In this document: one piece after another, positions 2,131 to 23,592 of the stretch
How positions within the stretch are numbered: position 1 is the first letter of the stretch
Layout: every line of letters starts with the position of its first letter
The notes under the pieces: model-generated
What the model was told of the DNA's origin: nothing
What the model saw: the letters and a program-made list of their open reading frames with translations, nothing else
Database searches by the model: none
Source: a virus
Reading direction: 5' to 3' (one strand)
Length of the DNA stretch: 44,108 nucleotides
Virus genome (UHGV): UHGV-0106768
Translations under genes and position numbers: made by a program

Positions 2131-2674
2131 GAAACAGTTTAGAAATAGAATATTTATAAAATATCCATTTAATTTAGATGATGTGAACAAGTGCAGATTA
2201 TATATCAAAGTTGAGATAAGCATAGTGCATAAAAAACAGCCCCCATTTTTTATGTATGTAAAAGAGAATTCGGATATGTTATGATATAGACACAGTCAAG
2301 GACAGGCACCGCCGCCCATGACTGGAAACAACCTCTATATGCCGGATGCATACGGCAGAGGACGGTCATATGAGAGCAGAACTGAACACCACAGGTATAT
2401 CCCGTGTTCGGAATCTGACATCATATGGCTACTCTGTGTCATGCATCCGGCTATTTTTCTGCCGCGGCATTCGGAGCATGGCAAATCGATCATTACATTT
2501 GTTAGTCAGGGCGCGCACTGGCGGACAGATGCTCATAACGGAAAACAATGCCTGTGGTCTGTATAGACCGGAACAGGTACCGAAAGATTTTCCGTGTGGA
2601 CATTGTCTGCCTGCGTGCCTTTTCGCAGTAAGAGCATCTGCCGCTGAGTGCGTTCCTTGCAGAAAGGAACGATT

Positions 2675-3397
2675 ATGGAAAACGTGAATGTTCAGAATGC
2701 TGCCGCTATTACCGATCAGACCACACTCGGAGAACTGCTTGCAATGCTTGACCTCGCTGATAAGGCAGGCAAGATGCCGACACCGAGAGAACTGTTTGAG
2801 ACCGCCGGTGAGACGATTGCCGACATGAACGGCTGCACGCTCTTCAGCAACGGGTTCGCTGTCTACCAGAATATCACCGGACGTACTGTTGTCTGGCTGC
2901 CTTACTGTAAGAGCTTCACCTATTACTTCGGCAAGCTCCGTGATTCCGAGAAAGACACGCTGACAGAGACCTATGAGCTGCCGGATGGATTTCTGGAAAC
3001 ACAGCCGTGGGTGATCGCAGTAACACTGATCGGCGACCATCGTGTGGAGGCAAACAGCATGAACCGCACCGGCAGCCGCAAGGATACCACAGATTATGAC
3101 AGCGCCGATAACGGCGATAAAGACGGTGATGCAGAGGAGGCTTTGGCAGATCCGTATCGCAGGGCATTCAACTGGTATGACGGACGCATGGGCGAGAATC
3201 CGCAGGATGCCGTGGAGCGCAGAGAGACACGCGAGGAGATGCTTGCAGACATGACGGACAAGCAGCGTGAAGCCTTTATTATGTACTTCAGGGATGGTAT
3301 GACGCAGGAAGAGATTGCTTCATATATAGGGGTAAGCCGTGATTCCATAAATGACAGGCTTGAAGGTGCATTGAAAAAAGCAAAAAAATATTTTTGA
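2675..3397 (+). CDS. sigma-70 region-4-like HTH protein (putative phage transcription factor)
   Basis: ATG 2675 with AAAGGA RBS (ORF track starts at in-frame GTG 2648); C-terminus (REAFIMYFRDGMTQEEIASYIGVSRDSINDRLEGALKKA) resembles sigma region 4; no region 2 recognised. Confidence 0.5.
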   Translation: MENVNVQNAAAITDQTTLGELLAMLDLADKAGKMPTPRELFETAGETIADMNGCTLFSNGFAVYQNITGRTVVWLPYCKSFTYYFGKLRDSEKDTLTETYELPDGFLETQPWVIAVTLIGDHRVEANSMNRTGSRKDTTDYDSADNGDKDGDAEEALADPYRRAFNWYDGRMGENPQDAVERRETREEMLADMTDKQREAFIMYFRDGMTQEEIASYIGVSRDSINDRLEGALKKAKKYF

Positions 3398-3442
3398 GGA
3401 TACCCACAAAAAGACCTCTCCCATGACAGTATATGAGAGGGC
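3398..3442. repeat. conserved ~45-bp element, copy 1 (GGATACCCACAAAA...hairpin)
   Basis: Near-identical to 17237..17280; CCTCTC/GAGAGG stem; lies immediately 3' of a stop codon after a T-run. Confidence 0.6.
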
Positions 3443-3529
3443 TTGAAAAGAAACCAAACCGCAAGCGGCTGCAAAGCCCTCGCAGCCGAACCATTATTAC
3501 ATCGGTCGAAAGACCTGAACAGAAAGGAA

Positions 3530-4390: not shown

Positions 4391-5638
4391 ATGCCTGACG
4401 TTCACGCACTGCTCAGTGCGTCCAGTTCAAAACAGTGGCTACACTGTCCGCCGTCAGTCCGTTTGCAGGAGGGATTTCCGAATGAGAGTTCAGTCTACGC
4501 CGCAGAGGGCACGTTTGCCCACGAGATCTGCGAATACAAGGTACGTAAGTACCTGAAGGAGCGTGTGAAGCGTCCGCAGTCCGAGGAATATGACACCGAG
4601 GAAATCGAGCAGATCACAGATGTGTATGCGGAGTTCGTGATCTCCATCATTGAGCAGATGAAGGAGAACGGCTGTGAGCCGCTTGCTTTTGTTGAGGAGC
4701 GTGTGGACTACAGCCACATTGCCCCTTCCGGCTTTGGCACGGCAGATATGCTCATCATCGGTAAGGACGAGCAGGGACGCGGAATCCTTCATGTATGCGA
4801 TTTCAAGACGGGTGCAGGCGTGTTTGTGGATGCAGACCACAACAGCCAGATGATGCTCTATGCGATCGGAGCTTTAGCCGCCTACGGCTTTTTGTATGAT
4901 TTTGAGATCGTGCGTATGAGCATCATTCAGCCTCGTCTGGATAATATCAGCACATTCGAGTGTAGCAGAGCCGAGCTTGAGGAATGGGGCGAGAGCATCA
5001 AGCCCATTGCGAAACTTGCCTACGAGGGCAAAGGTGAACAGCACCCCGGCGACTGGTGTCGGTTCTGCCGTGCAAAGCCTGTTTGCAAAGCGTGTGCCAA
5101 TGAAGCACTGGCACTCTGCCGTGAGGATTTCCTTGACCTCGATGCCGGAGCATTCGATGATACTGCGGAGGAAAGCGATATGACCGCACCATACGAAGCG
5201 GATATACAGACTGCCGTATTCAAGCAGCCGTGACTGATTCCTATCAGCGAACTTGCGGAGATCCTGCCGACTCTGAACCGCATCAGCTCTTGGATCGAGG
5301 CGGTATTCGCATTCGTATCCTCCGAGGCGATCAATCACGGTGTACCGATTCCCGGCTATAAGGTGGTCGAAGGGCGCAGCAAGCGTGTATTCACAGATAC
5401 AAAAGCTGTGGTCGATACCGCTGTTCAGAACGGGTACACCGACCTTTACAAGCAGACGCTCATCACGCTGACGGAATTTGAAAAGATGATGGGCAAGAAA
5501 AAGTTCAACGAGCTGCTCGGTGAGTATGTCGCCAAGCCACCCGGAAAGCTGGCACTTGTGCCGGAGAGCGATCCGAGAGAACCCGTTGATCTCACAACAC
5601 CCGGTCAGGAATTTGAAGTTCTCTCTGATGATGAGTGA
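4391..5638 (+). CDS. DUF2800-like PD-(D/E)XK nuclease (Cas4/RecB-like), interrupted by in-frame TGA at 5231-5233
   Basis: N-terminal MPDVHALLSASSSKQWLHCPPS and C-terminal Cys cluster CRFCRAKPVCKAC are as expected for DUF2800; same-frame continuation through the stop reads as protein (ISELAEILPTLNRISSWIEAV...GYKVVEGRSKRVF); downstream part has no RBS or ATG. Confidence 0.7.
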
Positions 5639-5711
5639 GGATCATACAATAATGCCGCAATTATTCTGTTTGGTGAATACGCAAAATTGAATGAAATATA
5701 GGAGGTATACT

Positions 5712-6287
5712 ATGGCAAACACAACACCCGCGACTAAAGTGGTTATTCCCTGTCGCATTTCTTTTGCGAACATCTGGGAGCCAAAATCAATTAATGGCAG
5801 CGAAGAGAAGTATTCCGTTTCCCTACTGATCCCGAAGGATGACAAGGCAACGCTCGCCAAGATCAAGAAGGCAATTGAGGCGGCAAAGGAAGCGGCGAAG
5901 GAGAAGAAGTGGGGCGGCAAGATCCCGCCGAACCTCAAGCTGCCGATGCATGACGGCGACATCGACCGTCCTGATGACGAGAACTATGCCGGTCACTTCT
6001 TCTTCAATGCCACGAGCAAGGATGCACCGCAGATCGTTGACCGCCATGTGCAGCCGATTCTCGATCCGATGGAGTGCGGCAGCGGTGACTATTGCAATGT
6101 CAGCGTGAACTTCTACGGTTTTGCAGCATCCGGCAACAAGGGCATCGCAGCAGGACTCCAGAACATCCAGCTTGTCCGCCACGGTGAGCGTCTTGCCGGC
6201 AGGCCGACCGCCGCATCCGACTTCGTTGAGGTCGAGGGTGATGATGCGGATGATCTCGCAGACGATGATCTGGATTTCCTGAACTGA
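5712..6287 (+). CDS. DUF2815-like ssDNA-binding protein
   Basis: ATG 5712 with GGAGG RBS 6 nt upstream; sits in the DUF2800 - DUF2815 - PolA arrangement typical of this replication module. Confidence 0.65.
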   Translation: MANTTPATKVVIPCRISFANIWEPKSINGSEEKYSVSLLIPKDDKATLAKIKKAIEAAKEAAKEKKWGGKIPPNLKLPMHDGDIDRPDDENYAGHFFFNATSKDAPQIVDRHVQPILDPMECGSGDYCNVSVNFYGFAASGNKGIAAGLQNIQLVRHGERLAGRPTAASDFVEVEGDDADDLADDDLDFLN

Positions 6288-6327: not shown

Positions 6328-9213
6328 GTGGTGATTTTATTGAGCAGACGTGTACTTTCTATCGACCTTGAGACCTACAGCGATGTTGACCTTCCGAACT
6401 GCGGTGTGTACCGCTATGTTGAGGGGGATTTTCATATCCTGCTGTTCGCATATGCATTCGATGATGAAGAAACAAAGTGTATCGACATGGCCTGCGGTGA
6501 ACAGCTTCCCGCAGAGGTTGTGGATGCCATACACAATGAAAATATCATCAAATCTGCGTGGAATGCGCAGTTTGAGCGCATCTGTCTGTCAAAATATCTC
6601 GGCATCAGGCTTTCTCCGGACTCGTGGCAATGCACGATGGTATGGGCGGCATCGCTGTCCCTGCCGCTGAAGCTGGCAACGGCAGCACAGGCTTTGAAAA
6701 CTGCACAGCAGAAAGACAGTGTCGGTGAACGGCTGATCCGCTACTTTTCGATTCCGTGTAAGCCTACCAAATCTAACGGCGGTCGCACACGCAATCTGCC
6801 GGAACACGCTCCGGAGGACTGGGCGCTGTTCAAAAGCTACTGTATTCAGGATGTGGAAACGGAACGGGATATCCGCCGAAGACTTGAAAAGTTTCCGCTG
6901 ATGCCGCAGGAATGGGATTTTTATCACATGGATCAGCGGATCAATGACCGCGGCATCCTGATCGACAGAGAGCTTGTGCAGCAGGCAATTATCTGTAATA
7001 TGGCAATGTCTGAGGAGATGACCAAACGCGCCTATGCACTGACGGGACTTGAAAATCCCAATTCTGTATCTCAGCTGAAGTCATGGCTGGAAGATCGCGG
7101 CATCGAGGTGGATTCCCTCGGCAAAAAGAATGTCGCTTCTCTGATCACAGACCTTGACAAGCACAGTGCGGACGGTGAAGCTCTGGATATGATGAAGCTG
7201 CGGTTGCAGATGGCAAAGTCCTCTGTGAAAAAGTATCAGGCGGCAGAGAGATACATCTGTCAGGACGGCAGGGCGCACGGACTGTTTCAGTTTTCCGGAG
7301 CTCAGCGAACACAGCGCTGGTGTCTTACCGGCGATCATGAAATACTGACAGATAAAGGCTGGCTCAGGCTTGATAATTGGCAGGGCGGTAAGATTGCTTG
7401 TTGGAATCCTAATCAGGAAATGGTCTCGTTCCAGAAAGCGAACGTATTGTGCTTTGAATATGACGGTCCTATCTACCGCTATGAGGACAAACGGATCGAT
7501 CAGATCAGCACGCCGGATCACAAAATGCGTGTAAAGAAACGGTATAACGGCGAGTGGACGGATGACACTGTTGGCAATATGGAAAAGTATCGTCCTTCTA
7601 TTCCGTTTACCGGACGCAGACAAACGATGCCCGGCTTGGAGCACGCAGAACTGAGGGTACTGGTGATGACGCAGGCTGACGGCAGCTATAAAGAAGATGG
7701 AATGCTCTGCTTCCATTTCAAGAAGAAAAGGAAAATAGAACGGTGCAAACATCTGCTCAGACAGGCGGGCATTTATTTCACAGTGAATGAATGCAGGACA
7801 GATGGAACAACGCAGATCAAGATTCCTTCCCGTGAGCAGCCGATGTATCTAAGAATGTTTCATAACAAGACATTTGGAATGTGGCTTCTCGATGAAAGCC
7901 CGGATGTTTTCTTTGATGAGCTTCGGTATTGGGACGGATCGCAAAGCGCCAAAAACAGTATCCAATATACCACAACGAACAAAGTGAATGCCGATATTGT
8001 TCAGGCTTTTGCTCATACAAGTGGTCGCTGTGCAAAAATGAAACCGGTCATCCGGGATAAAGAACACCCGAATTGGAGCGATGCATACTATCTCGATATA
8101 TGGCTCACTCCGAAAAACTGTCATGAAATCAGAGTGAAGCCGACTATCTCGCAATTCAGCGGCAAAATATACTGTGCTGAAACCCCAACCGGATACTTCC
8201 TTGTAAGACGTAATGGTAAAGTGTGGGTAACAGGAAACAGCGGGCGCGGCATTCAATTACAGAACCTGCCGCAGAACCACATCTCTACCCTCGATGAAGC
8301 AAGAGAACTTGTCAAAATGGGCTGCTTTGACATGATCGAAGCACTGTACGGCAATACGCCGGATATCCTGTCACAGCTTATCCGCACGATGCTCATTCCG
8401 AAGGACGGCTGTGAATTTATCGTGGCAGACTTCTCCGCCATTGAAGCGAGAGTACTTGCGTGGCTTGCCGGAGAACAGTGGCGGCTCGATGCCTTCAAGC
8501 GTGGCGAGGATATTTACTGTGCATCCGCATCGCAAATGTTCGGTGTTCCGGTCGTGAAGCACGGCATCAACGGTGAACTGCGGCAGAAAGGCAAGGTCGC
8601 AGAATTGGCCTGCGGTTACGGCGGCGGTGCCGGTGCGCTGATCTCAATGGGCGCACTGGATATGGGACTGAAAGAGGACGAACTTCCCGACATCATTTCA
8701 AGCTGGCGCGACGCAAACCCGGAGATCGTGAAATTCTGGTATGCTGTGGAAAAAGCCGCGATTGAAACAGTCAAGGATCACAATGACAGATCGGTCGGCC
8801 GGATCGGATTTCAGTTTTCAGCAAATACACTGTGGATCGTTCTTCCGTCCGGACGCAGGCTTGCCTACATCAAACCGAGATTACAGCCGAACCGCTTCGG
8901 GCGTATGGCACTGACATTTGAGGGGCTTGGTGCAAACAACAAGTGGGTGCGCGGCGAAACCTATTCCGGCAAGCTGACAGAGAACATCACACAGGCAACT
9001 GCCCGTGATCTCCTTGCAGAAGCAATGCGCCGTATAGAACTTGCAGGGCTTGGAATCGTCGGGCATGTGCATGATGAGGTCATTCTCGAAGTGCCGAAAG
9101 GACAATACACGGTCGATGATGTATGCAGCATCATGAATCAGAATCCGAAATGGGCGGAGGACTTACCGTTGTCAAGTGCAGGATATACGGGTGCATGGTA
9201 CTACAAAGATTAA
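6328..9213 (+). CDS. family A DNA polymerase with 3'-5' exonuclease domain, intein-containing
   Basis: Exo I motif SIDLETYS; pol motif A IVADFSAIEAR, motif B RQKGKVAELACGYGGG, motif C VHDEVI; NLQNLP-like motif; start ambiguous (GTG 6328 or TTG 6340). Confidence 0.85.
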   Translation: MVILLSRRVLSIDLETYSDVDLPNCGVYRYVEGDFHILLFAYAFDDEETKCIDMACGEQLPAEVVDAIHNENIIKSAWNAQFERICLSKYLGIRLSPDSWQCTMVWAASLSLPLKLATAAQALKTAQQKDSVGERLIRYFSIPCKPTKSNGGRTRNLPEHAPEDWALFKSYCIQDVETERDIRRRLEKFPLMPQEWDFYHMDQRINDRGILIDRELVQQAIICNMAMSEEMTKRAYALTGLENPNSVSQLKSWLEDRGIEVDSLGKKNVASLITDLDKHSADGEALDMMKLRLQMAKSSVKKYQAAERYICQDGRAHGLFQFSGAQRTQRWCLTGDHEILTDKGWLRLDNWQGGKIACWNPNQEMVSFQKANVLCFEYDGPIYRYEDKRIDQISTPDHKMRVKKRYNGEWTDDTVGNMEKYRPSIPFTGRRQTMPGLEHAELRVLVMTQADGSYKEDGMLCFHFKKKRKIERCKHLLRQAGIYFTVNECRTDGTTQIKIPSREQPMYLRMFHNKTFGMWLLDESPDVFFDELRYWDGSQSAKNSIQYTTTNKVNADIVQAFAHTSGRCAKMKPVIRDKEHPNWSDAYYLDIWLTPKNCHEIRVKPTISQFSGKIYCAETPTGYFLVRRNGKVWVTGNSGRGIQLQNLPQNHISTLDEARELVKMGCFDMIEALYGNTPDILSQLIRTMLIPKDGCEFIVADFSAIEARVLAWLAGEQWRLDAFKRGEDIYCASASQMFGVPVVKHGINGELRQKGKVAELACGYGGGAGALISMGALDMGLKEDELPDIISSWRDANPEIVKFWYAVEKAAIETVKDHNDRSVGRIGFQFSANTLWIVLPSGRRLAYIKPRLQPNRFGRMALTFEGLGANNKWVRGETYSGKLTENITQATARDLLAEAMRRIELAGLGIVGHVHDEVILEVPKGQYTVDDVCSIMNQNPKWAEDLPLSSAGYTGAWYYKD
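7321..8238 (+). mobile_element. intein (306 aa) with LAGLIDADG homing-endonuclease domain inside the PolA gene
   Basis: Begins CLTGDHEILTDKGW (block A), TPDH block B, two LAGLIDADG-like motifs (VMTQADGSY, LRYWDGS), ends ...VWVTGN followed by Ser; removing it joins RTQRW to SGRGIQLQNLP, restoring the conserved TGR-S/NLQN region. Confidence 0.7.
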
Positions 9214-10964: not shown

Positions 10965-11458
10965 TTAACCCTAAACGCAGAGCTGTGAGAAAAAGCTGCT
11001 CATACTGCGGAACTGTCTTTACCTATGTCGGAAGTCATGGTACAAGAAATAAGCATTTTTTCTGTTCTCATGAATGCTATATTGCCTTTAAGACAAAGAA
11101 AGCAGAAGTGAAATGCGATTGGTGCGGCAAATCAATGCTGAAAAAACGCTCTGAAATATGGAGAACGGATCACAATTTCTGCTGCCCCGAATGCTGTTTA
11201 CTGTATAGGCAAAAGCAAGGCGAAACTTCATGGAATCATCGTGTGAATGGAATAACCGTACACAGGGGCATTTTGGAGAAGAAGCTCGGACGAGAACTGC
11301 GTGCGGATGAAGAAGTACACCATATCGATGGTAACCATTTCAATAATGATCCGGACAATCTCATCGCCCTTTCCAAATCGGAACACGCCAAAATTCATTC
11401 TTCTTGGAAAGCGAGGGACGAGTATGGAAAATACGTTAAAACGCAGTCAGATTCATGA
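10961..11458 (+). CDS. HNH endonuclease (free-standing, homing-endonuclease-like)
   Basis: Cys-rich N-terminus plus HNH motif EVHHIDGNHFNNDPDNLIALSKSEHAKIH; overlaps both neighbours. Confidence 0.75.
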   Translation: MINPKRRAVRKSCSYCGTVFTYVGSHGTRNKHFFCSHECYIAFKTKKAEVKCDWCGKSMLKKRSEIWRTDHNFCCPECCLLYRQKQGETSWNHRVNGITVHRGILEKKLGRELRADEEVHHIDGNHFNNDPDNLIALSKSEHAKIHSSWKARDEYGKYVKTQSDS

Positions 11459-12806: not shown

Positions 12807-12902
12807 CAATATACAGTCTGTATGATCCACCCCTTATTGACGACAGGAAGACGGCAAAGCGGCGACAATTCGGTTACGCCGCAAACCACGGAGGTGAAAA
12901 CT

Positions 12903-13388
12903 ATGGCTCGTAAGAACAAACGCCTAAAAACAGAATACCACAGAGGGCTCGGCTTTGATCCGAGAAAATATATTACGGCACCGGTGCAGCACCACACCAT
13001 CGCTCACAAGCCGCAGCGCGGTGACATCTGGTTTGCGGATCTTGGCTGTCATCCGGATTCCAGCGTGCAGAGCGGCATCCGTCCGGTTATCATTCTCTCG
13101 AATGATATGGGCAATGCACACGCCGACACGGTCAATATCATTCCCATGACGCGGCATCTGAAAAAGCCGGAGCTGCCGTGCCATACGCATCTGTTCCCCG
13201 ACAGTATTTCCGATCTTCATCAGCATCTATATCCGTCCATGATCCTGGCGGAGCAGCTCACGACTGTCAGCAAGCATGCGCTTCGCAGCTATGCCGGACA
13301 TATCTCGGACGCCGATGCGATGAACCGTATTGAAACCGCTGTCATTGCACAGCTTTTCATTGAAAGGAGACATTCCGAATGCCTGTAA
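12903..13388 (+). CDS. MazF/PemK-like endoribonuclease-fold protein with ~38-aa basic N-terminal extension
   Basis: RGDIWFADLG...GIRPVIILSND...VNIIPMT pattern; GGAGGTGA RBS 5 nt upstream of ATG 12903. Confidence 0.65.
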   Translation: MARKNKRLKTEYHRGLGFDPRKYITAPVQHHTIAHKPQRGDIWFADLGCHPDSSVQSGIRPVIILSNDMGNAHADTVNIIPMTRHLKKPELPCHTHLFPDSISDLHQHLYPSMILAEQLTTVSKHALRSYAGHISDADAMNRIETAVIAQLFIERRHSECL

Positions 13389-15808
13389 ATTTCGTAAATA
13401 TCCCGGACGCACTGAAGCAGTCGGCATCCTTCTGTGTCTGGAAGCTGGAAAAGAGATCCGGACGCCCCACAAAAGTGCCGTACAATCCGAGAACCGGCAA
13501 CATGGCAAAAACCAACGAGCCGGACACCTTCACCGACTTCAAGACCGCTATGAAAGCGTATGCGATTGGCGGCTGGAACGGCATCGGCTACAGAGTTTCC
13601 GAGGGAATCGGTGCAATCGACATCGACCACTGTATCCGGGAGGACGGCAGCCTGAATGATGTGGCAGCATCCATTCTCGGTATCTTCAGCACTGCCTACT
13701 TTGAACGCTCTCCATCCGGCACCGGACTGCGCGGCTTCTTCAAACTCAGCCCTGAGTTTGCCTACGATAAGACTGTGTACTACATCAACAACCGCAAACA
13801 CGGTCTGGAGGTCTATCTGCCCGGAACGACCAACCGCTTTGTAACTGTTACGGGAGATATGTTCCGTCCCGGTACCGTTGAGCGTGATGATGATGCACTC
13901 CGCAATCTGCTTGACACCTTCATGAAGCGCAGCACCCGTGTATCAAATAAGACGATCGAGCCTGCATCCTATCTTGATGACGAGGGTGTCATCGCACACG
14001 CATTCGCCTCTGCTTCTGGTGATAAATTCAAAGCACTCTACGAGGGACACTGGGAGGAAGGCTATGATTCGCAGTCTGATGCAGACATGGCGTTCGTGTC
14101 CATGCTGTGCTTCTGGTGCGGCAATGTGGAGGAGCAGATCGACCGTATCTTCCGAACTTCCGGTCTGATGCGTGATAAGTGGGATCGTATGACCGGTGAC
14201 AGGACCTACGGTCAGATCACGATCCGCAATGCCATCGCATCGACATCCGAGATCTATACACCTATTGCGGACTCCTCCGCAGAGGATGATTTTGAAGATA
14301 TTGAGGGCGAGACAGATACAGAGCAGCTGATGTTTGAGCCGGATTTCACCCACATCACCCTGACGCTGGAACAGATGCAGCCGCACACAAATCCTCGCTA
14401 TCAGCGTGACGAGATCGGTATTGGCTATGCATTTGCGGATTACTATAAGCCAATCGCTCATTTCGACCGTGAGCGCGGTATCTGGTATGTCTTTGACGGG
14501 AAGGTGTGGCAGCCGGACGAAAATGCTCTCGCTGTGGCGGAGATTGCAAAGCGTCTGGCAGACAGGCTGTATACCTTCGCCCTTCAGATCAAGGATGAGG
14601 ATACTCGAAACAGGTATATCAAGCGTGTACAGAAGCTCCAACTCCGCAAAAACCGCCGCACCATGATCGAAGATGCGAAATCCGTGTATCCAGTGCCGCA
14701 CGCTATCTTTGACCGCAATACCGATCTGTTCAACAGTCAGAACGGCACGCTGAACCTCACCACAGGTGAATTCCGTCCGCACGATCCGGCAGACTTTCTC
14801 ACCATGATGTCCGGTGTCACCTATGATCCGAATGCCACCTGTCCGAGATGGGAGCAGTTCATTTCCGAAGTTATGTGTAACGATGCTGACCTCGCATTAT
14901 ACTTGCAAAAAGCCCTCGGATATGCGCTTACCGGCGACACATCGCTCGAATGCCTGTTCATCCTCTACGGTGCGACCTCCCGAAACGGAAAAGGCACCAC
15001 AATGGAGACATTTCTGAAGATCATGGGTGATTACGGCAAAACCTCCAATCCGGAGATGCTGTCTACAAAATTCGGCAACACCAATGCGTCCGGACCGTCT
15101 GAGGAGATTGCTCGCCTTGCGGGTGTGCGTTTCGTTAATATCTCCGAGCCGGAGAAGAAGATCACCTTCAATGCAGCACTGGTAAAGCGTATGACGGGTA
15201 ACGATACACTGAATGCTCGTTTTCTGCATGAGAACAGCTTCGATTTCAAGCCGAATTTCAAGATCTTCATCAATACGAATTACAAACCGTCCGTTTCTGA
15301 TATGACACTGTTTTACTCCAACCGTCTGAAGCTCATTCCGTTCAAACGCCATTTTGAGGAGCATGAGCAGGACAAAGGTCTGAAAGCATTTTTCAGTACG
15401 GATGTCTGCCTCTCTGCCATCTTTAACTGGTGCTATGAAGGATATAAGCGGTTTCGTTCCGAAGGTCTGGAGGATCCGGCTGCTGTTTCTCAGGCAACCA
15501 AGGAGTATCAGGAGGAGTCTGACCGCATCGGTCAGTTTGTGGATGCATGGCTCGAAGAAGGCGAAGCATTTGAAGTTCGTACCTCTGCGGCATATAAGCT
15601 GTACGGTGAATGGTGCGATAAGTATGGCTACCGCAAGGAGAACAGCACCAACTTCAATAATGCGATTCAGCGTTTCTTCCCCATCGTGCGTAAGCGTCCG
15701 AACGATACAAAGGGTGCGCAGAAAACAACAATGCTTGTGGGGTGCCGTTTCCTGGATCATGAAAACGGCGAAGCTGACGAACCGGATGAGTTTGCTGCCT
15801 TGGAGTAA
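13379..15808 (+). CDS. DNA primase/helicase (prim-pol-like N-terminal domain plus P4/D5-type helicase)
   Basis: 809 aa; Walker A GATSRNGKGT; N-terminal bifunctional primase-polymerase-like region; AAGGAGA RBS. Confidence 0.8.
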   Translation: MPVNFVNIPDALKQSASFCVWKLEKRSGRPTKVPYNPRTGNMAKTNEPDTFTDFKTAMKAYAIGGWNGIGYRVSEGIGAIDIDHCIREDGSLNDVAASILGIFSTAYFERSPSGTGLRGFFKLSPEFAYDKTVYYINNRKHGLEVYLPGTTNRFVTVTGDMFRPGTVERDDDALRNLLDTFMKRSTRVSNKTIEPASYLDDEGVIAHAFASASGDKFKALYEGHWEEGYDSQSDADMAFVSMLCFWCGNVEEQIDRIFRTSGLMRDKWDRMTGDRTYGQITIRNAIASTSEIYTPIADSSAEDDFEDIEGETDTEQLMFEPDFTHITLTLEQMQPHTNPRYQRDEIGIGYAFADYYKPIAHFDRERGIWYVFDGKVWQPDENALAVAEIAKRLADRLYTFALQIKDEDTRNRYIKRVQKLQLRKNRRTMIEDAKSVYPVPHAIFDRNTDLFNSQNGTLNLTTGEFRPHDPADFLTMMSGVTYDPNATCPRWEQFISEVMCNDADLALYLQKALGYALTGDTSLECLFILYGATSRNGKGTTMETFLKIMGDYGKTSNPEMLSTKFGNTNASGPSEEIARLAGVRFVNISEPEKKITFNAALVKRMTGNDTLNARFLHENSFDFKPNFKIFINTNYKPSVSDMTLFYSNRLKLIPFKRHFEEHEQDKGLKAFFSTDVCLSAIFNWCYEGYKRFRSEGLEDPAAVSQATKEYQEESDRIGQFVDAWLEEGEAFEVRTSAAYKLYGEWCDKYGYRKENSTNFNNAIQRFFPIVRKRPNDTKGAQKTTMLVGCRFLDHENGEADEPDEFAALE

Positions 15809-15846
15809 AAGTAGACTTTTCTCCGTATTTGCGCTGTTTTCCGCAG

Positions 15847-15936
15847 TTGGGGCAACGTGGGGCAAGTTTTTTCGGTGGTTATTATTATTACTTCTCTTTA
15901 TATATATTACTATTTTTACTTGCCCCTACTTGCCCC
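15847..15936. repeat. putative replication origin: two GGGGCAA repeats, AT-rich spacer, two inverted TTGCCCC repeats
   Basis: GGGGCAAG at 15859-15866 is the exact reverse complement of CTTGCCCC at 15919-15926 and 15929-15936; ~50 bp of >85% AT between; further CCTTGCC/GGCAAGG inverted pair at 16021-16076. Confidence 0.5.
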
Positions 15937-16114
15937 AAATAAATAAAAACAATAGAAAAGATAAGAAGAATAGAGGATTTTCACTGATTTGAACCATTAC
16001 CCATTTTGCACTGTTTTGAACCTTGCCCGATGCTGTCACTGACAAAGAGTGTGTAAGCGACAAAGCGTGGCAAGGTCAAAATCCAACGATCAATCATGCA
16101 GGAGGAACAAGAAT

Positions 16115-17209
16115 ATGAGAATCATCACTTCAGAACAGGTATCCGCAGGACACCCCGACAAGATCTGTGACCAGATCGCAGATGCTATCGTGACCGACTG
16201 CCTGCAGCATGACCACAACAGCCGTGTCGCCATCGAGTGCCTTTTCAAGAACCGCTTCCTTGTGATCGCCGGTGAACTGACCAGCACCCATGAGCCCGAC
16301 TACAAGGCACTGGTGCAGAGCGTGTTTGACCGCATCAACAACGGCGGAGCAGAGAGTACCGATGCAGGTTTTGATTACAAGCTGGATTTCACAGCCGATG
16401 ATCTGGACATTGCGATTCTGGTCGATCACCAGAGTAGCGACATTGCCCTCGGTGTGAATACCGGCGGTGCAGGAGATCAGGGTATGATGTACGGCTATGC
16501 GACCAACGAAACGCCGGAGATGCTCCCGATCCCCTTCGTGCTGGCTACCAGATTTCTGGAACTGCTGAAAGCCTACCCCTGCCGTATGCTGAAAGCCGAC
16601 GCAAAGGCACAGGTCAGCTATGACTATGACAGCGGTCGCATTACCACCTTCCTCTGCTCGGTGCAGCATACACACGATGTGGATGTTGAGGACTTCAAGC
16701 CCATCATCGAAAAGCTGATGGTGAGAACGGCAACCGAATACGGGCTGAATACAGACTTTGCAAAGCTCGTCAACCCGACCGGCAGATTTGTCATAGGCAG
16801 TTCCTTTGCGGACTGCGGCGTTACCGGACGCAAGCTCGCCTGCGATACCTATGGCGGTATCGGGCATATCGGCGGCGGTGCAATGTCCGGCAAAGATCCG
16901 TCTAAGGTTGACCGCAGCGGCGCATATGCAGCAAGAAAAATCGCAAGGGATATCGTCAGTGCCGGATATGCGGATATGGCAGAGGTGCAGATCGCATATG
17001 CCATCGGCGTGGCAGAACCCGTATCCGTGTATGTGGAAACCTTCGGCACGGAGCATCAGGATACGGAGTTCATCAGCCAGTATGTCCGTGAGAACTACGA
17101 CCTGACACCGAGAGGTATCATTGAAGGACTGCATTTGCTGGATGTGGACTACAACGCTGTTTCCGCATACGGACACTTCGGAAAACAGAACCTTCCGTGG
17201 GAACTATAA
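16115..17209 (+). CDS. metK: S-adenosylmethionine synthetase (MetK)
   Basis: SEQVSAGHPDKICDQIADAI N-terminus, GAGDQGMMYGYA and GGGAMSGKDPSKVDRSGAYAARKIA motifs; CAGGAGGA RBS. Confidence 0.85.
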   Translation: MRIITSEQVSAGHPDKICDQIADAIVTDCLQHDHNSRVAIECLFKNRFLVIAGELTSTHEPDYKALVQSVFDRINNGGAESTDAGFDYKLDFTADDLDIAILVDHQSSDIALGVNTGGAGDQGMMYGYATNETPEMLPIPFVLATRFLELLKAYPCRMLKADAKAQVSYDYDSGRITTFLCSVQHTHDVDVEDFKPIIEKLMVRTATEYGLNTDFAKLVNPTGRFVIGSSFADCGVTGRKLACDTYGGIGHIGGGAMSGKDPSKVDRSGAYAARKIARDIVSAGYADMAEVQIAYAIGVAEPVSVYVETFGTEHQDTEFISQYVRENYDLTPRGIIEGLHLLDVDYNAVSAYGHFGKQNLPWEL

Positions 17210-17236: not shown

Positions 17237-17280
17237 GGATACCCACAAAATGCCCTCTCCCACGACAGTATATGAGGGGC
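17237..17280. repeat. conserved ~45-bp element, copy 2
   Basis: GGATACCCACAAAATGCCCTCTCCCACGACAGTATATGAGGGGC; matches 3398..3442 with stem-preserving differences. Confidence 0.6.
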
Positions 17281-17360
17281 GTTGCTCAGACCGAACAACA
17301 CATCATTTGCGGGGCTGACCGTCCCTCACCAAATATCAACACAGGAAGGAGGCAGAGACA

Positions 17361-22005: not shown

Positions 22006-22319
22006 GAGCCAGACTGAAACCGCCGGGAGATGCCGTTCGCTGCGATGCCTGCGGATGTGCCTTTGTGCCGGAGCCGAAAATGCAGCGTGAGGGCGAGATC
22101 GAATACAGCTTCTTCAACTGTGATTACTGTGGCAAAGCGTATATCGTGTCTGTGACCGATGCCGCACTCCGCCGGAGCATCCGCAAGTACCGGACGCTTG
22201 CCGAAAAGCTGAAGGACAAGCCGCTGAGTGAAGAAACGCTCCGTGAAGTCACGGCGCTGAAGGATGCGAACACAAAAAGAGCCGCAGAGCTGCGGCAGAT
22301 GTATATACGGGAGGGATGA
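22002..22319 (+). CDS. zinc-ribbon hypothetical protein
   Basis: CDACGC...CDYCG; overlaps neighbours. Confidence 0.45.
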   Translation: MRARLKPPGDAVRCDACGCAFVPEPKMQREGEIEYSFFNCDYCGKAYIVSVTDAALRRSIRKYRTLAEKLKDKPLSEETLREVTALKDANTKRAAELRQMYIREG

Positions 22320-22320
22320 G

Positions 22321-23592
22321 ATGAAAACAGCAGAACTTCGCATGATCCCTGTCTCGGAACTGAAGCCTGCGGAATACAACCCGCGTAAAAAGCTGAAGCC
22401 CGGCGACAAGGAATACGAGAAGATCAAAAACAGCATCGAGGAATTCGGTTTTGCCGACCCTTTGGTAGTCAACGCCGATATGACCATCATCGGCGGACAT
22501 CAGAGACTGACCGTAGCGATGGCGCTCGGCTACACGGAAGTTCCGTGTGCGGTGGTAGACATCGACAAGGTTCGTGAGAAGGCACTGAACATCGCACTGA
22601 ACAAGATCACGGGTGCGTGGGACGAGAACCTTCTTGCTGAACTTCTGGAGGATATTCAGAACAGTGATTTCGATCTTGGCAAGACCGGCTTTGACCCGCC
22701 GGAGATCGAGCAGCTTTTCAATCAGGTACACGATAAGCAGGTCAAAGAGGACAGCTTCGATGTGGAGGAGGAGCTTCAGAAACCGACCTTCTCTCAGCCG
22801 GGAGATACCTGGATCCTCGGCAGGCACAGAGTCATCTGCGGCGACAGCACAGTTGCGGAGACATACACAAAGCTGATGGACGGACAGAAAGCAAATCTCG
22901 TCCTGACGGACCCGCCTTACAATGTGGATGTTGAGGAGACCGCCGGCAAGATCATGAACGATAACATGAGCGACAGCGATTTCTACAACTTCCTGCTTGC
23001 CGCCTATAAGTGTATGTATGACAGTCTTGCCGATGACGGCAGCATCTATGTATGGCACGCCGACACCGAGGGGCTGAATTTCAGAAAGGCATTCAAGGAC
23101 GCAGGATTCCAGCTTTCCGGCTGCTGTATCTGGAAGAAGAATTCGCTGGTGCTCGGGCGCAGTCCTTACCAGTGGATCCATGAACCGTGCCTGTTCGGCT
23201 GGAAGCAGAAGGGCAAGCATCAGTGGTACGCCGACCGCAAGCAGACGACCGTCTGGGAATACGACAAGCCGAAAAGCAGTCCCGATCATCCGACCACAAA
23301 GCCCATCCCGCTGATGGCGTACCCGATCAAGAACAGCACCATGACAAACGGCATCGTCCTCGATCCATTTCTCGGCTCTGGCTCTACGCTGATCGCCTGC
23401 TGTGAGACAGACCGTGTCTGCCGGGGCATCGAGCTTGACCCGAAGTTCGTGGATGTCATCGTGAAACGTTACCTCGCATGGTGTCAGGAGAAGCAGACCG
23501 CAGAGGTCGCATATGTTCTCCGTGACGGCCAGAAGCTGTCATACGAGGAAGCGATTGCAGTAATGCCGCAGGACGGTGATGCTGTTGAGTGA
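22321..23592 (+). CDS. ParB-like N-terminal domain fused to N6-adenine/N4-cytosine DNA methyltransferase
   Basis: ParB-N-like GGHQRL; MTase motif IV DPPY before motif I LDPFLGSGST (beta-class order); GGGAGGGA RBS. Confidence 0.8.
   Translation: MKTAELRMIPVSELKPAEYNPRKKLKPGDKEYEKIKNSIEEFGFADPLVVNADMTIIGGHQRLTVAMALGYTEVPCAVVDIDKVREKALNIALNKITGAWDENLLAELLEDIQNSDFDLGKTGFDPPEIEQLFNQVHDKQVKEDSFDVEEELQKPTFSQPGDTWILGRHRVICGDSTVAETYTKLMDGQKANLVLTDPPYNVDVEETAGKIMNDNMSDSDFYNFLLAAYKCMYDSLADDGSIYVWHADTEGLNFRKAFKDAGFQLSGCCIWKKNSLVLGRSPYQWIHEPCLFGWKQKGKHQWYADRKQTTVWEYDKPKSSPDHPTTKPIPLMAYPIKNSTMTNGIVLDPFLGSGSTLIACCETDRVCRGIELDPKFVDVIVKRYLAWCQEKQTAEVAYVLRDGQKLSYEEAIAVMPQDGDAVE

Follow-up and report, generated by a model that had tools for sequence, protein, structure and literature searches.

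Among the described replication systems, those of the Staphylococcus aureus pathogenicity islands (SaPIs) are the closest to the locus presented here. SaPI Reps are superfamily 3 (SF3) helicases that load themselves and that recognise iterons of five or six nucleotides through a C-terminal winged helix. Their origins, located directly downstream of rep, contain six to twelve iterons about an AT-rich centre, with two or more on either flank, the two sets facing in opposite directions, and have an iteron sequence that is specific to the cognate initiator (PMC9371898). This work deals with a block of comparable organisation (positions 15848-15976) in the virus genome UHGV-0106768, which was analysed as a single stretch of 44,108 nucleotides (nt), hereafter referred to as the window. 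The block follows a primase-helicase gene, whose product is the presumed initiator. Considering its layout, its recurrence in related loci and the homology of the adjacent protein to PriRep5 of SaPI5, we regard it, with good confidence, as the probable replication origin of this phage, of the SaPI/PriRep type.

The likeness to the SaPIs extends to several levels. As in SaPI1, SaPIbov1 and SaPI5, the initiator is a helicase of the SF3 class that carries a winged helix at its C-terminus, and an archaeo-eukaryotic primase (AEP) is fused to it in the manner of PriRep5. The putative origin lies directly downstream of the initiator open reading frame (ORF), with the stop codon at 15808 and iteron 1 at 15848, and the same holds in the relatives. 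The iterons are hexanucleotides with GGGGCA cores, arranged as two plus two in inverted orientation about an AT-rich centre, which is the lowest number in the described range. The iterons also match the winged helix of the cognate initiator, here by co-variation only and with the exception of the Gln and Thr variants discussed below. Since every sequence-level feature of the SaPI origin definition is found, with the iteron number at its minimum, the block would represent an origin of a known kind. Unlike the SaPIs, which are satellite islands, the window belongs to a complete phage that encodes a PolA, a single-strand-binding protein and an SNF2 helicase of its own. This phage probably infects a member of the Oscillospirales in the rumen or gut. 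Its predicted origin is followed by an A-rich tract and a conserved hairpin, and the SaPI origins, unlike it, have been defined experimentally. The similarity to PriRep5 is weak in the helicase and winged-helix part (28.8 bits).

The block is contained in the 306-nt gap between the stop codon of the primase-helicase gene (15808) and the start of metK (16115), which has a G+C content of 39%, against about 52% for the window. Both flanking genes (13379-15808 and 16115-17209) could be confirmed, and with them the placement just 3' of the primase-helicase gene given in a preliminary description of this DNA. The first TGGGGCAA octamer pair begins 38 nt past the primase-helicase stop codon. The parts of the locus are the following:

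13379-15808, + strand: primase-helicase gene, presumed initiator, 809 amino acids (Pfam, PHROG, TIGR01613 and PDB matches)
15848-15855, + strand: iteron 1, TGGGGCAA, core GGGGCA at 15849-15854 (position kept and sequence class-specific in related loci)
15858-15865, + strand: iteron 2, TGGGGCAA, 10 bp from iteron 1
15868-15917, no strand assigned: 50-nt AT-rich spacer (about 80-83% A+T), T-rich on the + strand, in which a TTTCTTTATA core is conserved; the presumed DNA-unwinding element
15920-15927, - strand: iteron 3, AGGGGCAA as read on the - strand
15930-15937, - strand: iteron 4, TGGGGCAA as read on the - strand, 10 bp from iteron 3
15939-15976, no strand assigned: A-rich tract with GATAAGAAGAATAGAGG at its end, part of the conserved origin cassette (inverted repeat I1)

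The centres of consecutive iterons are 10, 62 and 10 bp apart, and the two 21-nt arms that carry them (15847-15867 and 15918-15938) are 86% complementary. The A-rich tract and the right half of the spacer are approximately reverse complements. The hexamer GAATAG is strand-specific; it has 15 occurrences, where 0.5 would be expected, spread over 14 of 23 loci. A double-pair layout of this kind is far from what chance would give, because the 21-mer arm, with up to three mismatches allowed, occurs twice in the window against 0.01 expected, and because a detector of two direct and two inverted k-mers around an AT-rich spacer returned this site only in the 44 kb and nothing in 20 block-shuffled windows. 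The octamer TGGGGCAA itself is present six times in the window (1.6 expected), three of these at this site; the remaining copies are isolated and at chance level, and no second iteron cluster was found in the window.

The recurrence of the layout was followed in related loci (designated by L numbers), which were collected with the primase as the query: 48 viral loci, with 25-95% identity, and later 80 metagenome loci. Counts cover those with enough sequence, namely 44 viral loci from IMG/VR and 76 from metagenomes. The layout is present 3' of the homologous primase gene in about 36 of the former and 67 of the latter, and the site is always 3' of the primase-helicase gene, short contigs and remnants included. 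The dimensions are also kept: with few exceptions (one metagenome clade has 11 bp) the hexamers within an arm are spaced by 9-10 bp in the relatives, and the spacer between the 21-nt arms measures 48-50 nt in 21 of the 24 distinct viral loci. The hexamer varies among lineages (GGGGCA, GTAGCA, GTCGCA, GTTGCA, GTGGCA, GGGGAG, GGGAAAG and GTAAAAG), the four copies of one locus changing jointly. The layout is kept where the next gene is not metK (L017, L019 and L049) and also in L014, where an insertion parts the origin from the primase gene. The origin cassette also has copies in rumen and gut samples, on contigs whose bins are assigned to Oscillospiraceae, Clostridiales and Ruminococcus.

In one clade (L021, L023, L024 and L040) the order of the parts, as read from composition and multiple alignment, is T-rich tract, pair, A-rich tract, pair, which mirrors the order in the window (pair, T-rich, pair, A-rich) against the same flanking genes; the A-rich tract accompanies the iteron pairs here as well. 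This clade may have arisen by inversion or by relocation of one iteron pair, two events that neither these data nor pairwise alignment scores tell apart, since the T-rich and A-rich tracts are near reverse complements. From the mirrored order it follows that the element is independent of the direction of transcription, which fits an element acting at the level of DNA and not of the transcript.

Two classical temperate phages show the same layout. In Bacillus phage phi105 (NC_004167; L060, 3659-3772) a primase with 31% identity is followed by two copies of TGTTACT, an AT-rich spacer of 82 nt and two copies of AGTAACA, with arms of 16 nt (TGTTACTTTTGTTACT and its complement) that are fully (100%) complementary. 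In Listeria phage PSA (NC_003291; L059, 3493-3726) a primase that is also 31% identical is followed by several copies of AACTATCCACC, in addition to GGTGGATAGTT. The retrieved stretches of both records carry no annotated rep_origin feature.

Some relatives depart from the window in further respects. The insertion in L014 (6412-7890), of about 1.4 kb, carries an HTH_3 gene on the opposite strand between the primase stop codon and the origin, and the same insertion follows a truncated primase remnant without an origin in L053 (3029-3743). In L006 (2659-2705), L022 (3070-3110), L038 (6690-6750) and L056 (2400-2430), three to six additional iterons, of the class of the locus, are clustered between the primase stop codon and the left arm; the window has no such cluster in this position.

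The presumed initiator consists of an AEP primase-polymerase (prim-pol) with an NrS-1-type helix bundle domain, a D5_N domain, an SF3 helicase and a C-terminal winged helix. It matches D5_N, NrS1-1_pol-like_HBD, Pox_D5 and, weakly, RFX_DNA_binding in Pfam, and a DNA primase family in PHROG. Against TIGR01613 ('phage/plasmid primase, P4 family', primase_Cterm) it scores 234 bits over residues 451-759, where the cut-off is 108.7. The best sequence match in the PDB is 7OLA (E = 1.4e-39), which aligns with residues 5-318 (prim-pol) and 450-767 (helicase, reaching into the winged helix). The structure 7OLA is PriRep5 of SaPI5 (PMC9371898), of which the window protein is thus a full-length homologue. 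A PDB profile search with the C-terminal domain only gave one marginal match, again to 7OLA.

Prim-pol and helicase are fused in the window protein, as in SaPI5 PriRep5. The prim-pol and the D5_N-helicase-winged-helix part are encoded as separate ORFs in L058 (257-2724) and L051 (651-3127), which have a 4-nt overlap, and in L054 (310-2733), with an 84-nt gap; in this they resemble the separate pri and rep genes of most SaPIs.

The C-terminal domain was modelled with AlphaFold2 (AF2) as part of residues 541-809, from 105 homologues, with predicted local distance difference test (pLDDT) values of 75-93 in this domain. An earlier AF2 model of the last 120 residues, from an 18-sequence alignment, was discarded (pLDDT 47.7). 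The predicted topology, H1-S1-H2-H3-S2-W1-S3, is that of a winged helix. Its elements, with the codons of the wing, are:

residues 716-724: helix H1 (AF2 model)
residues 725-734: strand S1 (AF2 model)
residues 735-749: helix H2 (AF2 model)
residues 756-763: helix H3 (AF2 model)
residues 769-772: strand S2 (AF2 model)
residues 773-782: loop, wing W1 (AF2 model)
residues 783-791: strand S3 (AF2 model)
15695-15724, + strand: codons of wing loop W1, residues 773-782, RPNDTKGAQK (AF2 model, fold matches and mutual information)

In this model Lys782 directly precedes strand S3. In a Foldseek comparison the C-terminal domain matches the DNA-binding domain of RFX1 in complex with its X-box (1DP7), with a template modelling (TM) score of 0.77 and a root-mean-square deviation of 2.2 A over 74 columns; the other matches are RFX5 (TM scores of 0.73-0.77 for the RFX proteins) and the primase-helicase of African swine fever virus.

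The natural variation of the iterons points to the part of this domain that may recognise them. When 34 distinct primases were aligned (933 columns) and the columns were ranked by their power to predict the iteron class, the top three were those of residues 782, 780 and 775, with normalised mutual information of 1.00, 0.75 and 0.71, and residue 778 ranked seventh of the 933 (0.60). All four are within the ten-residue stretch RPNDTKGAQK, so that, according to the AF2 model, the co-varying residues are in wing W1. Among close relatives, the rest of the C-terminal domain is almost invariant and helix H3 is constant. The association was also examined in a larger metagenome set, in which agreement was counted by distinct wing contexts:

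wing-tip Lys: G at iteron position 3, in 10 of 10 contexts
wing-tip Pro: A at iteron position 3, in 6 of 7 contexts (one mixed)
wing-tip Met: A at iteron position 3, in 4 of 4 contexts
wing-tip Ala, Cys or Val: T at iteron position 3, in 6 of 6 contexts
wing-tip Gln: context dependent, GS-Q with GTCGCA (two clades) and GG-Q with GTAGC (a large third clade)
wing-tip Thr: context dependent, GN-T with GTAGA, and GS-T and SSST with GTTGC

A strict one-residue code held in the first 34 loci and fails for Gln and Thr in the wider set. Given that these two residues depend on their context, the correspondence between wing and iteron is a strong tendency and not a strict code. It has predictive value in loci outside those from which the rule was derived. 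The Pro tip of L014 predicted GTAGCA, and a double pair of this class was found 1.4 kb downstream, past the inserted gene. The expected classes were likewise present in L049 and L050 (Lys, GGGGCA), in L054 and L056 (Pro, GTAGC) and in L058 (Val, GTTGCA). Furthermore, the iteron classes are interleaved relative to the identity over the first 700 residues, which to the window protein amounts to 0.94 in L006 (GTAGCA), 0.92 in L004 (GGGGCA), 0.90 in L010 (GGGGCA) and 0.89 in L012 (GTCGCA), and in a distant backbone (L034, 58% identity) Lys is again found with GGGGCA.

Together with the fold, these data suggest that the wing loop 773-782 of an RFX-like winged helix seems to be the part that reads the iterons. 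In RFX1 it is the wing that reads the major groove, while the helix rests on the minor groove (PMC4333399), an arrangement with which a specificity signal in the wing and a constant helix H3 would be in keeping. The resemblance to RFX1 (PDB 1DP7) thus concerns the fold of the C-terminal domain and the concentration of the co-variation in the wing. Unlike the window protein, with which it shares 18% sequence identity, RFX1 is a eukaryotic transcription factor that binds as a dimer to a palindromic X-box, and its domain has been solved with the X-box, whereas the family of the window protein is known without a complex structure.

Several points weigh against the interpretation of the block as an origin read by the wing of the adjacent initiator. 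The Gln and Thr exceptions break the rule that links wing and iteron, and two loci (L052 and L055) have mixed iterons. Part of the association between wing and iteron is phylogenetic, as sequences with the same wing share ancestry; the interleaving of the classes, the recurrence of the pattern in distant backbones and the predictions that held lessen this concern without removing it. The window has four iterons where the SaPIs have six to twelve. Binding of the initiator at this site would also fit autoregulation or copy control, and the origin activity of the block is itself predicted from its sequence. Finally, the cumulative GC skew of the window shows no inflection at the site, which weighs little either way, since the 44-kb genome seems, from crude ORF calls, to be transcribed largely from one strand.

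Of the other functions that such a block could have, transcriptional control is the one that best withstands these data, although we consider it unlikely. The spacer would then hold a promoter and the repeats would be operators, through which the winged helix of the primase or another regulator acts on metK and the downstream genes, and replication would not start here. The position of the block between two genes of the same transcription direction and the weak TATATT-type hexamers within the spacer speak for this possibility, as does the fact that initiators often autoregulate at their own iterons. Against it, a scan for sigma-70-like promoters (-35 and -10 elements with 16-18-nt spacing) between 15000 and 17000 found none, where shuffled sequences gave 2.2, so that the option of the repeats being no more than the promoter or operator of metK, which the preliminary description had set against its own proposal, finds no backing. 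The phage also has a sigma-like gene of its own (2648-3397) and a different repeated promoter-like motif elsewhere (3398-3445 and 17238-17285). Moreover, the layout persists in the loci in which metK is not the next gene and in the one in which an insertion separates it from the primase gene, and it equals that of the experimentally defined SaPI origins. A sigma-54 reading of TGGCA was rejected for its wrong spacing.

It is very unlikely that the inverted arms act as a hairpin in a transcript or in single-stranded DNA, for instance in termination, in processing or as a structural signal, and not as protein sites. The arms are able to pair: folded as single-stranded DNA they reach -17.55 kcal/mol (z = -5.0), and they change together among lineages, as a stem also predicts. 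In addition, an Rfam search (E up to 10) gave four matches only, to microRNA-precursor models, which mirror a hairpin shape and stay far below the gathering threshold (E = 0.45-9.5). The pattern of conservation is nonetheless that of binding sites. In a set of 18 distinct loci, complementarity between the arms is complete (100%) at 11 iteron-core positions and 94% at a twelfth, whereas three linker positions are complementary in only 17-28% of the loci, which is the chance level. Both hexamers of one arm are copies of each other and change jointly, for which a stem has no need. Because of this joint change, of the non-complementary linkers and of the order of the parts being mirrored, relative to transcription, in one clade, four equivalent protein sites are favoured over a stem, and the repeats are read as probable protein-binding iterons and not as a selected hairpin. 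The hexamer, furthermore, co-varies with a protein loop. A stem formed by the arms would require a loop of 50 nt with about 80% A+T and would not be followed by a T-run, as the T-run at 15867-15872 comes after the left arm and not after the completed stem. A scan of 15809-16114 for intrinsic terminators, defined by a short GC-rich stem, a loop of 3-8 nt and a T-run after it, found none, so that one transcript probably carries both the primase gene and metK.

A packaging (pac/cos) or partition (centromere-like) site for another phage protein, to which clusters of short repeats and the ParB-like domain encoded at 22264-23592 could point, is the least probable of all, since the hexamer follows the wing of the neighbouring primase-helicase rather than a gene further away, the site always comes after the primase-helicase gene, an AT-rich centre between inverted pairs is an origin layout and no terminase or partition gene is adjacent.

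Returning to replication, we infer binding, melting, helicase loading and priming at this site from the anatomy of the block, its conservation, the co-variation of repeats and wing, and the homology to PriRep5. The RFX-like winged helix at the C-terminus of the initiator would bind the four hexamers, mainly via the wing loop. The centre-to-centre distances would put the iterons roughly on one face of the helix, and the opposed pairs would allow initiator assemblies to form to the left and right of the AT-rich spacer of 50 bp, which would then melt. The helicase would load itself, the N-terminal prim-pol would synthesise the initial primers, and PolA and the Enc34-type single-strand-binding protein of the phage would take over. 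As to priming, the left edge of the spacer (TTTTTTCGGTGGTTA) contains GTGG, and the recognition sequences reported for the NrS-1 enzyme, a homologue, are TTTGGTTA and GTG(G/A) (PMC8718748). By analogy, this GTGG may be a recognition site of the primase, which is offered as a lead only.

Other families of origins share part of this organisation. The alpha protein of satellite phage P4 combines a primase, a helicase and a C-terminal winged-helix origin-binding domain that acts on short repeated octamers; its primase domain is of the DnaG/Toprim type, and P4 needs a second cis region (crr) located kilobases away. The window protein is akin to P4 alpha in passing the TIGR01613 model, and the window differs from the ori and crr arrangement of P4 in having no second iteron cluster. 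In the core origins of simian virus 40 (SV40) and the papillomaviruses, whose initiators, large T antigen and E1, are likewise SF3 helicases, short sites in inverted pairs lie beside an easily melted region and an A/T tract, and two hexamers assemble head to head. The position of the right iteron pair of the window between a T-rich and an A-rich tract recalls these core origins, although the origin-binding domains are unrelated and the viruses eukaryotic, so that the likeness is one of mechanism only. In iteron plasmids, such as pSC101, RK2, F and P1, repeated initiator sites also adjoin an AT-rich unwinding element, but the iterons are direct tandem repeats of 17-22 bp, and Rep has paired winged-helix domains without a helicase and depends on the DnaA and DnaB of the host. 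The window, on the other hand, has sites of 6-8 bp in two inverted pairs and a self-loading helicase. An iteron-plasmid origin of the RepA, pi or TrfA type was therefore not recognised here, in view of these sites and of TGTGG-type motifs that match only five of the nine positions of a DnaA box. No convincing DnaA box was found in the window, the best TGTG-type matches being 5/9.

The preliminary description had treated the iteron block and the repeats further downstream as one origin-like cluster. This is strongly supported for the block formed by iterons, AT-rich spacer and inverted iterons, by a layout present in well over 100 related loci, by the co-variation of the four repeats with one another and with the wing and by the homology to PriRep5, but finds no support for the remainder. 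All the motifs it had listed are indeed present, that is, besides the iterons, TTTGAACC at 15988-15995 and 16015-16022, CCTTGCC at 16021-16027, GGCAAGG at 16069-16075, and GACAAAG at 16041-16047 and 16059-16065. The downstream motifs belong to the first two of the following features:

15978-16031, + strand: 27-nt tandem duplication that gives rise to both TTTGAACC copies (repeat family D1)
16014-16081, + strand: conserved imperfect hairpin, stem TTTTGAACCTTGCC with GGCAAGGTCAAAA, with two GACAAAG units inside (RNAalifold)
16100-17209, + strand: ribosome-binding site AGGAGG (16100-16105) and metK (ATG at 16115), with three S-AdoMet synthetase domains

The TTTGAACC repeats come from a duplication that is found in the window and in L004 only, with units at 15978-16004 and 16005-16031 that are 78% identical. 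As close relatives have the unit in a single copy (L001, L002, L003, L005, L008 and L016), the repeat is recent and not a conserved feature of the origin. The CCTTGCC and GGCAAGG pair that flanks the GACAAAG units, in turn, is the core of a longer stem, that of a separate hairpin which is unchanged across iteron classes and which RNAalifold recovers independently in two subfamilies. The reading of the GGCAAGG and GACAAAG block as extra iterons was rejected for the same constancy, and that of GACAAAG...GGCAAG as a repeated promoter motif because the pattern is unique in the window.

In the more diverse alignment (A5), 91.6% of the cells of this hairpin pair, against 84.8 +/- 1.5 in shuffles, and eight pairs have changed on both sides, against 3.4 +/- 1.2; none of 500 shuffles reaches either value, and slid controls give 34-51%. 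The hairpin uses G-U pairs, which fit the + strand only, and it keeps its + orientation beside the downstream gene even in the mirrored-origin clade. The RNA fold of the window's own hairpin is not unusually stable (z = -1.06), and the Rfam search revealed no S-adenosylmethionine (SAM) riboswitch or other riboswitch ahead of metK. Two functions come into consideration: the hairpin may be an RNA structure in the metK or intercistronic leader, for example a processing or stabilising hairpin, or it may act, on the strand that a rightward fork displaces, as a signal for priming on single-stranded DNA. The region from the origin to the next gene is also enriched in strand-specific short motifs. In 22 loci, TTGTGG was observed 16 times against 1.2 expected (its reverse complement once), TGTGGG 13 times against 0.9 (its reverse complement not at all) and CAAAGG 14 times against 1.4.

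In the window, TTGTGG-type motifs lie at roughly 16030-16075. The GTGG within TTGTGG and TGTGGG is among the motifs that the NrS-1 prim-pol is reported to recognise. The TTGTGG-type motif takes the form TGTGGATA(T/C) in some relatives, which agrees with 8/9 of a DnaA box, against 5/9 in the window; an interpretation of the TGTGG motifs as DnaA boxes was rejected on account of the 5/9 of the window copies, although the match is 7-8/9 in some relatives.

A combined interpretation of both parts of the region is advanced tentatively, as one that falls somewhat short of being probable. Origin specificity in this large family of primase-helicase initiators would be set by very few tip residues of a single beta-hairpin wing, in an RFX1-like manner (Lys with G, Pro or Met with A, and Ala, Cys or Val with T at iteron position 3). 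To the right of the origin, the conserved plus-strand hairpin and the TTGTGG motifs, which are strand-specific, would be single-stranded DNA priming signals for the NrS-1-type prim-pol and not features of an mRNA.

The locus is part of a replication module that encodes an exonuclease, an Enc34-type single-strand-binding protein (5691-6287), PolA (6328-9213), a DUF932 protein, an SNF2 helicase, a PemK/MazF-like protein, the primase-helicase, MetK and NrdD. A search of GenBank phage DNA found no close relative, metK alone being matched. The gene with the PemK/MazF-like toxin domain (12822-13388) is directly upstream of the primase gene, whose start it overlaps by 10 nt, and L058 has the same neighbour.

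Some further observations concern other parts of the window. Two near-identical intergenic motifs of 48 nt, at 3398-3445 and 17238-17285, read GGATACCCACAAAA..CCCTCTCCCA(T/C)GACAGTATATGAG(A/G)GG, and each holds an inverted repeat about GACAGTATAT. The first copy comes directly after the sigma-factor-like gene (2648-3397) and the second directly after metK; the motif is also found in L017, L019 and L049, upstream of the gene that follows the origin. These motifs may be promoters for the phage's own sigma factor, or operators. Two genes (105-2033 and 4391-5638) are each split by one in-frame stop codon, with halves that match the same PHROG family contiguously: a phrog_4031 protein, with TAG at 1095, and a phrog_69 exonuclease, with TGA at 5231, where a gap of 129 nt corresponds to the missing part of the profile. 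The split genes could reflect assembly errors, pseudogenes or read-through; these cases show no recoding of a single codon, since one stop is TAG and the other TGA. Lastly, in the 336-nt gap between an endonuclease-like ORF and the SNF2 helicase (10965-11300), another frame reads as a Cys-rich (CxxC) zinc-finger or HNH-type sequence without a called start, which may be a missed or degraded gene.

In kind, the element is an ordinary one, and the added value lies in the evidence from natural variation for the loop that seems to read the iterons. For annotation, the intergenic block is to be divided into three features, namely an origin, a recent duplication and a separate hairpin. The locus provides a concrete, if predicted, pair of origin and initiator for widespread uncultured gut and rumen phages of Oscillospirales-type hosts, with an origin layout that is shared by the classical phages phi105 and PSA, for which no origin is annotated in the stretches retrieved. 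A minimal cassette of primase and origin is a possible starting point for vectors in anaerobes that are hard to engineer, and the natural variants of wing and iteron form a ready dataset on how an RFX-like wing reads DNA and on how the specificity of replicons diverges. If the hairpin is indeed a priming signal, the origin would be made up of two parts, a site of duplex opening and a dedicated signal for priming. If a few residues of the wing do set the specificity, single substitutions, together with matching changes in the four hexamers, would give rise to new, mutually incompatible replicons among co-infecting phages.

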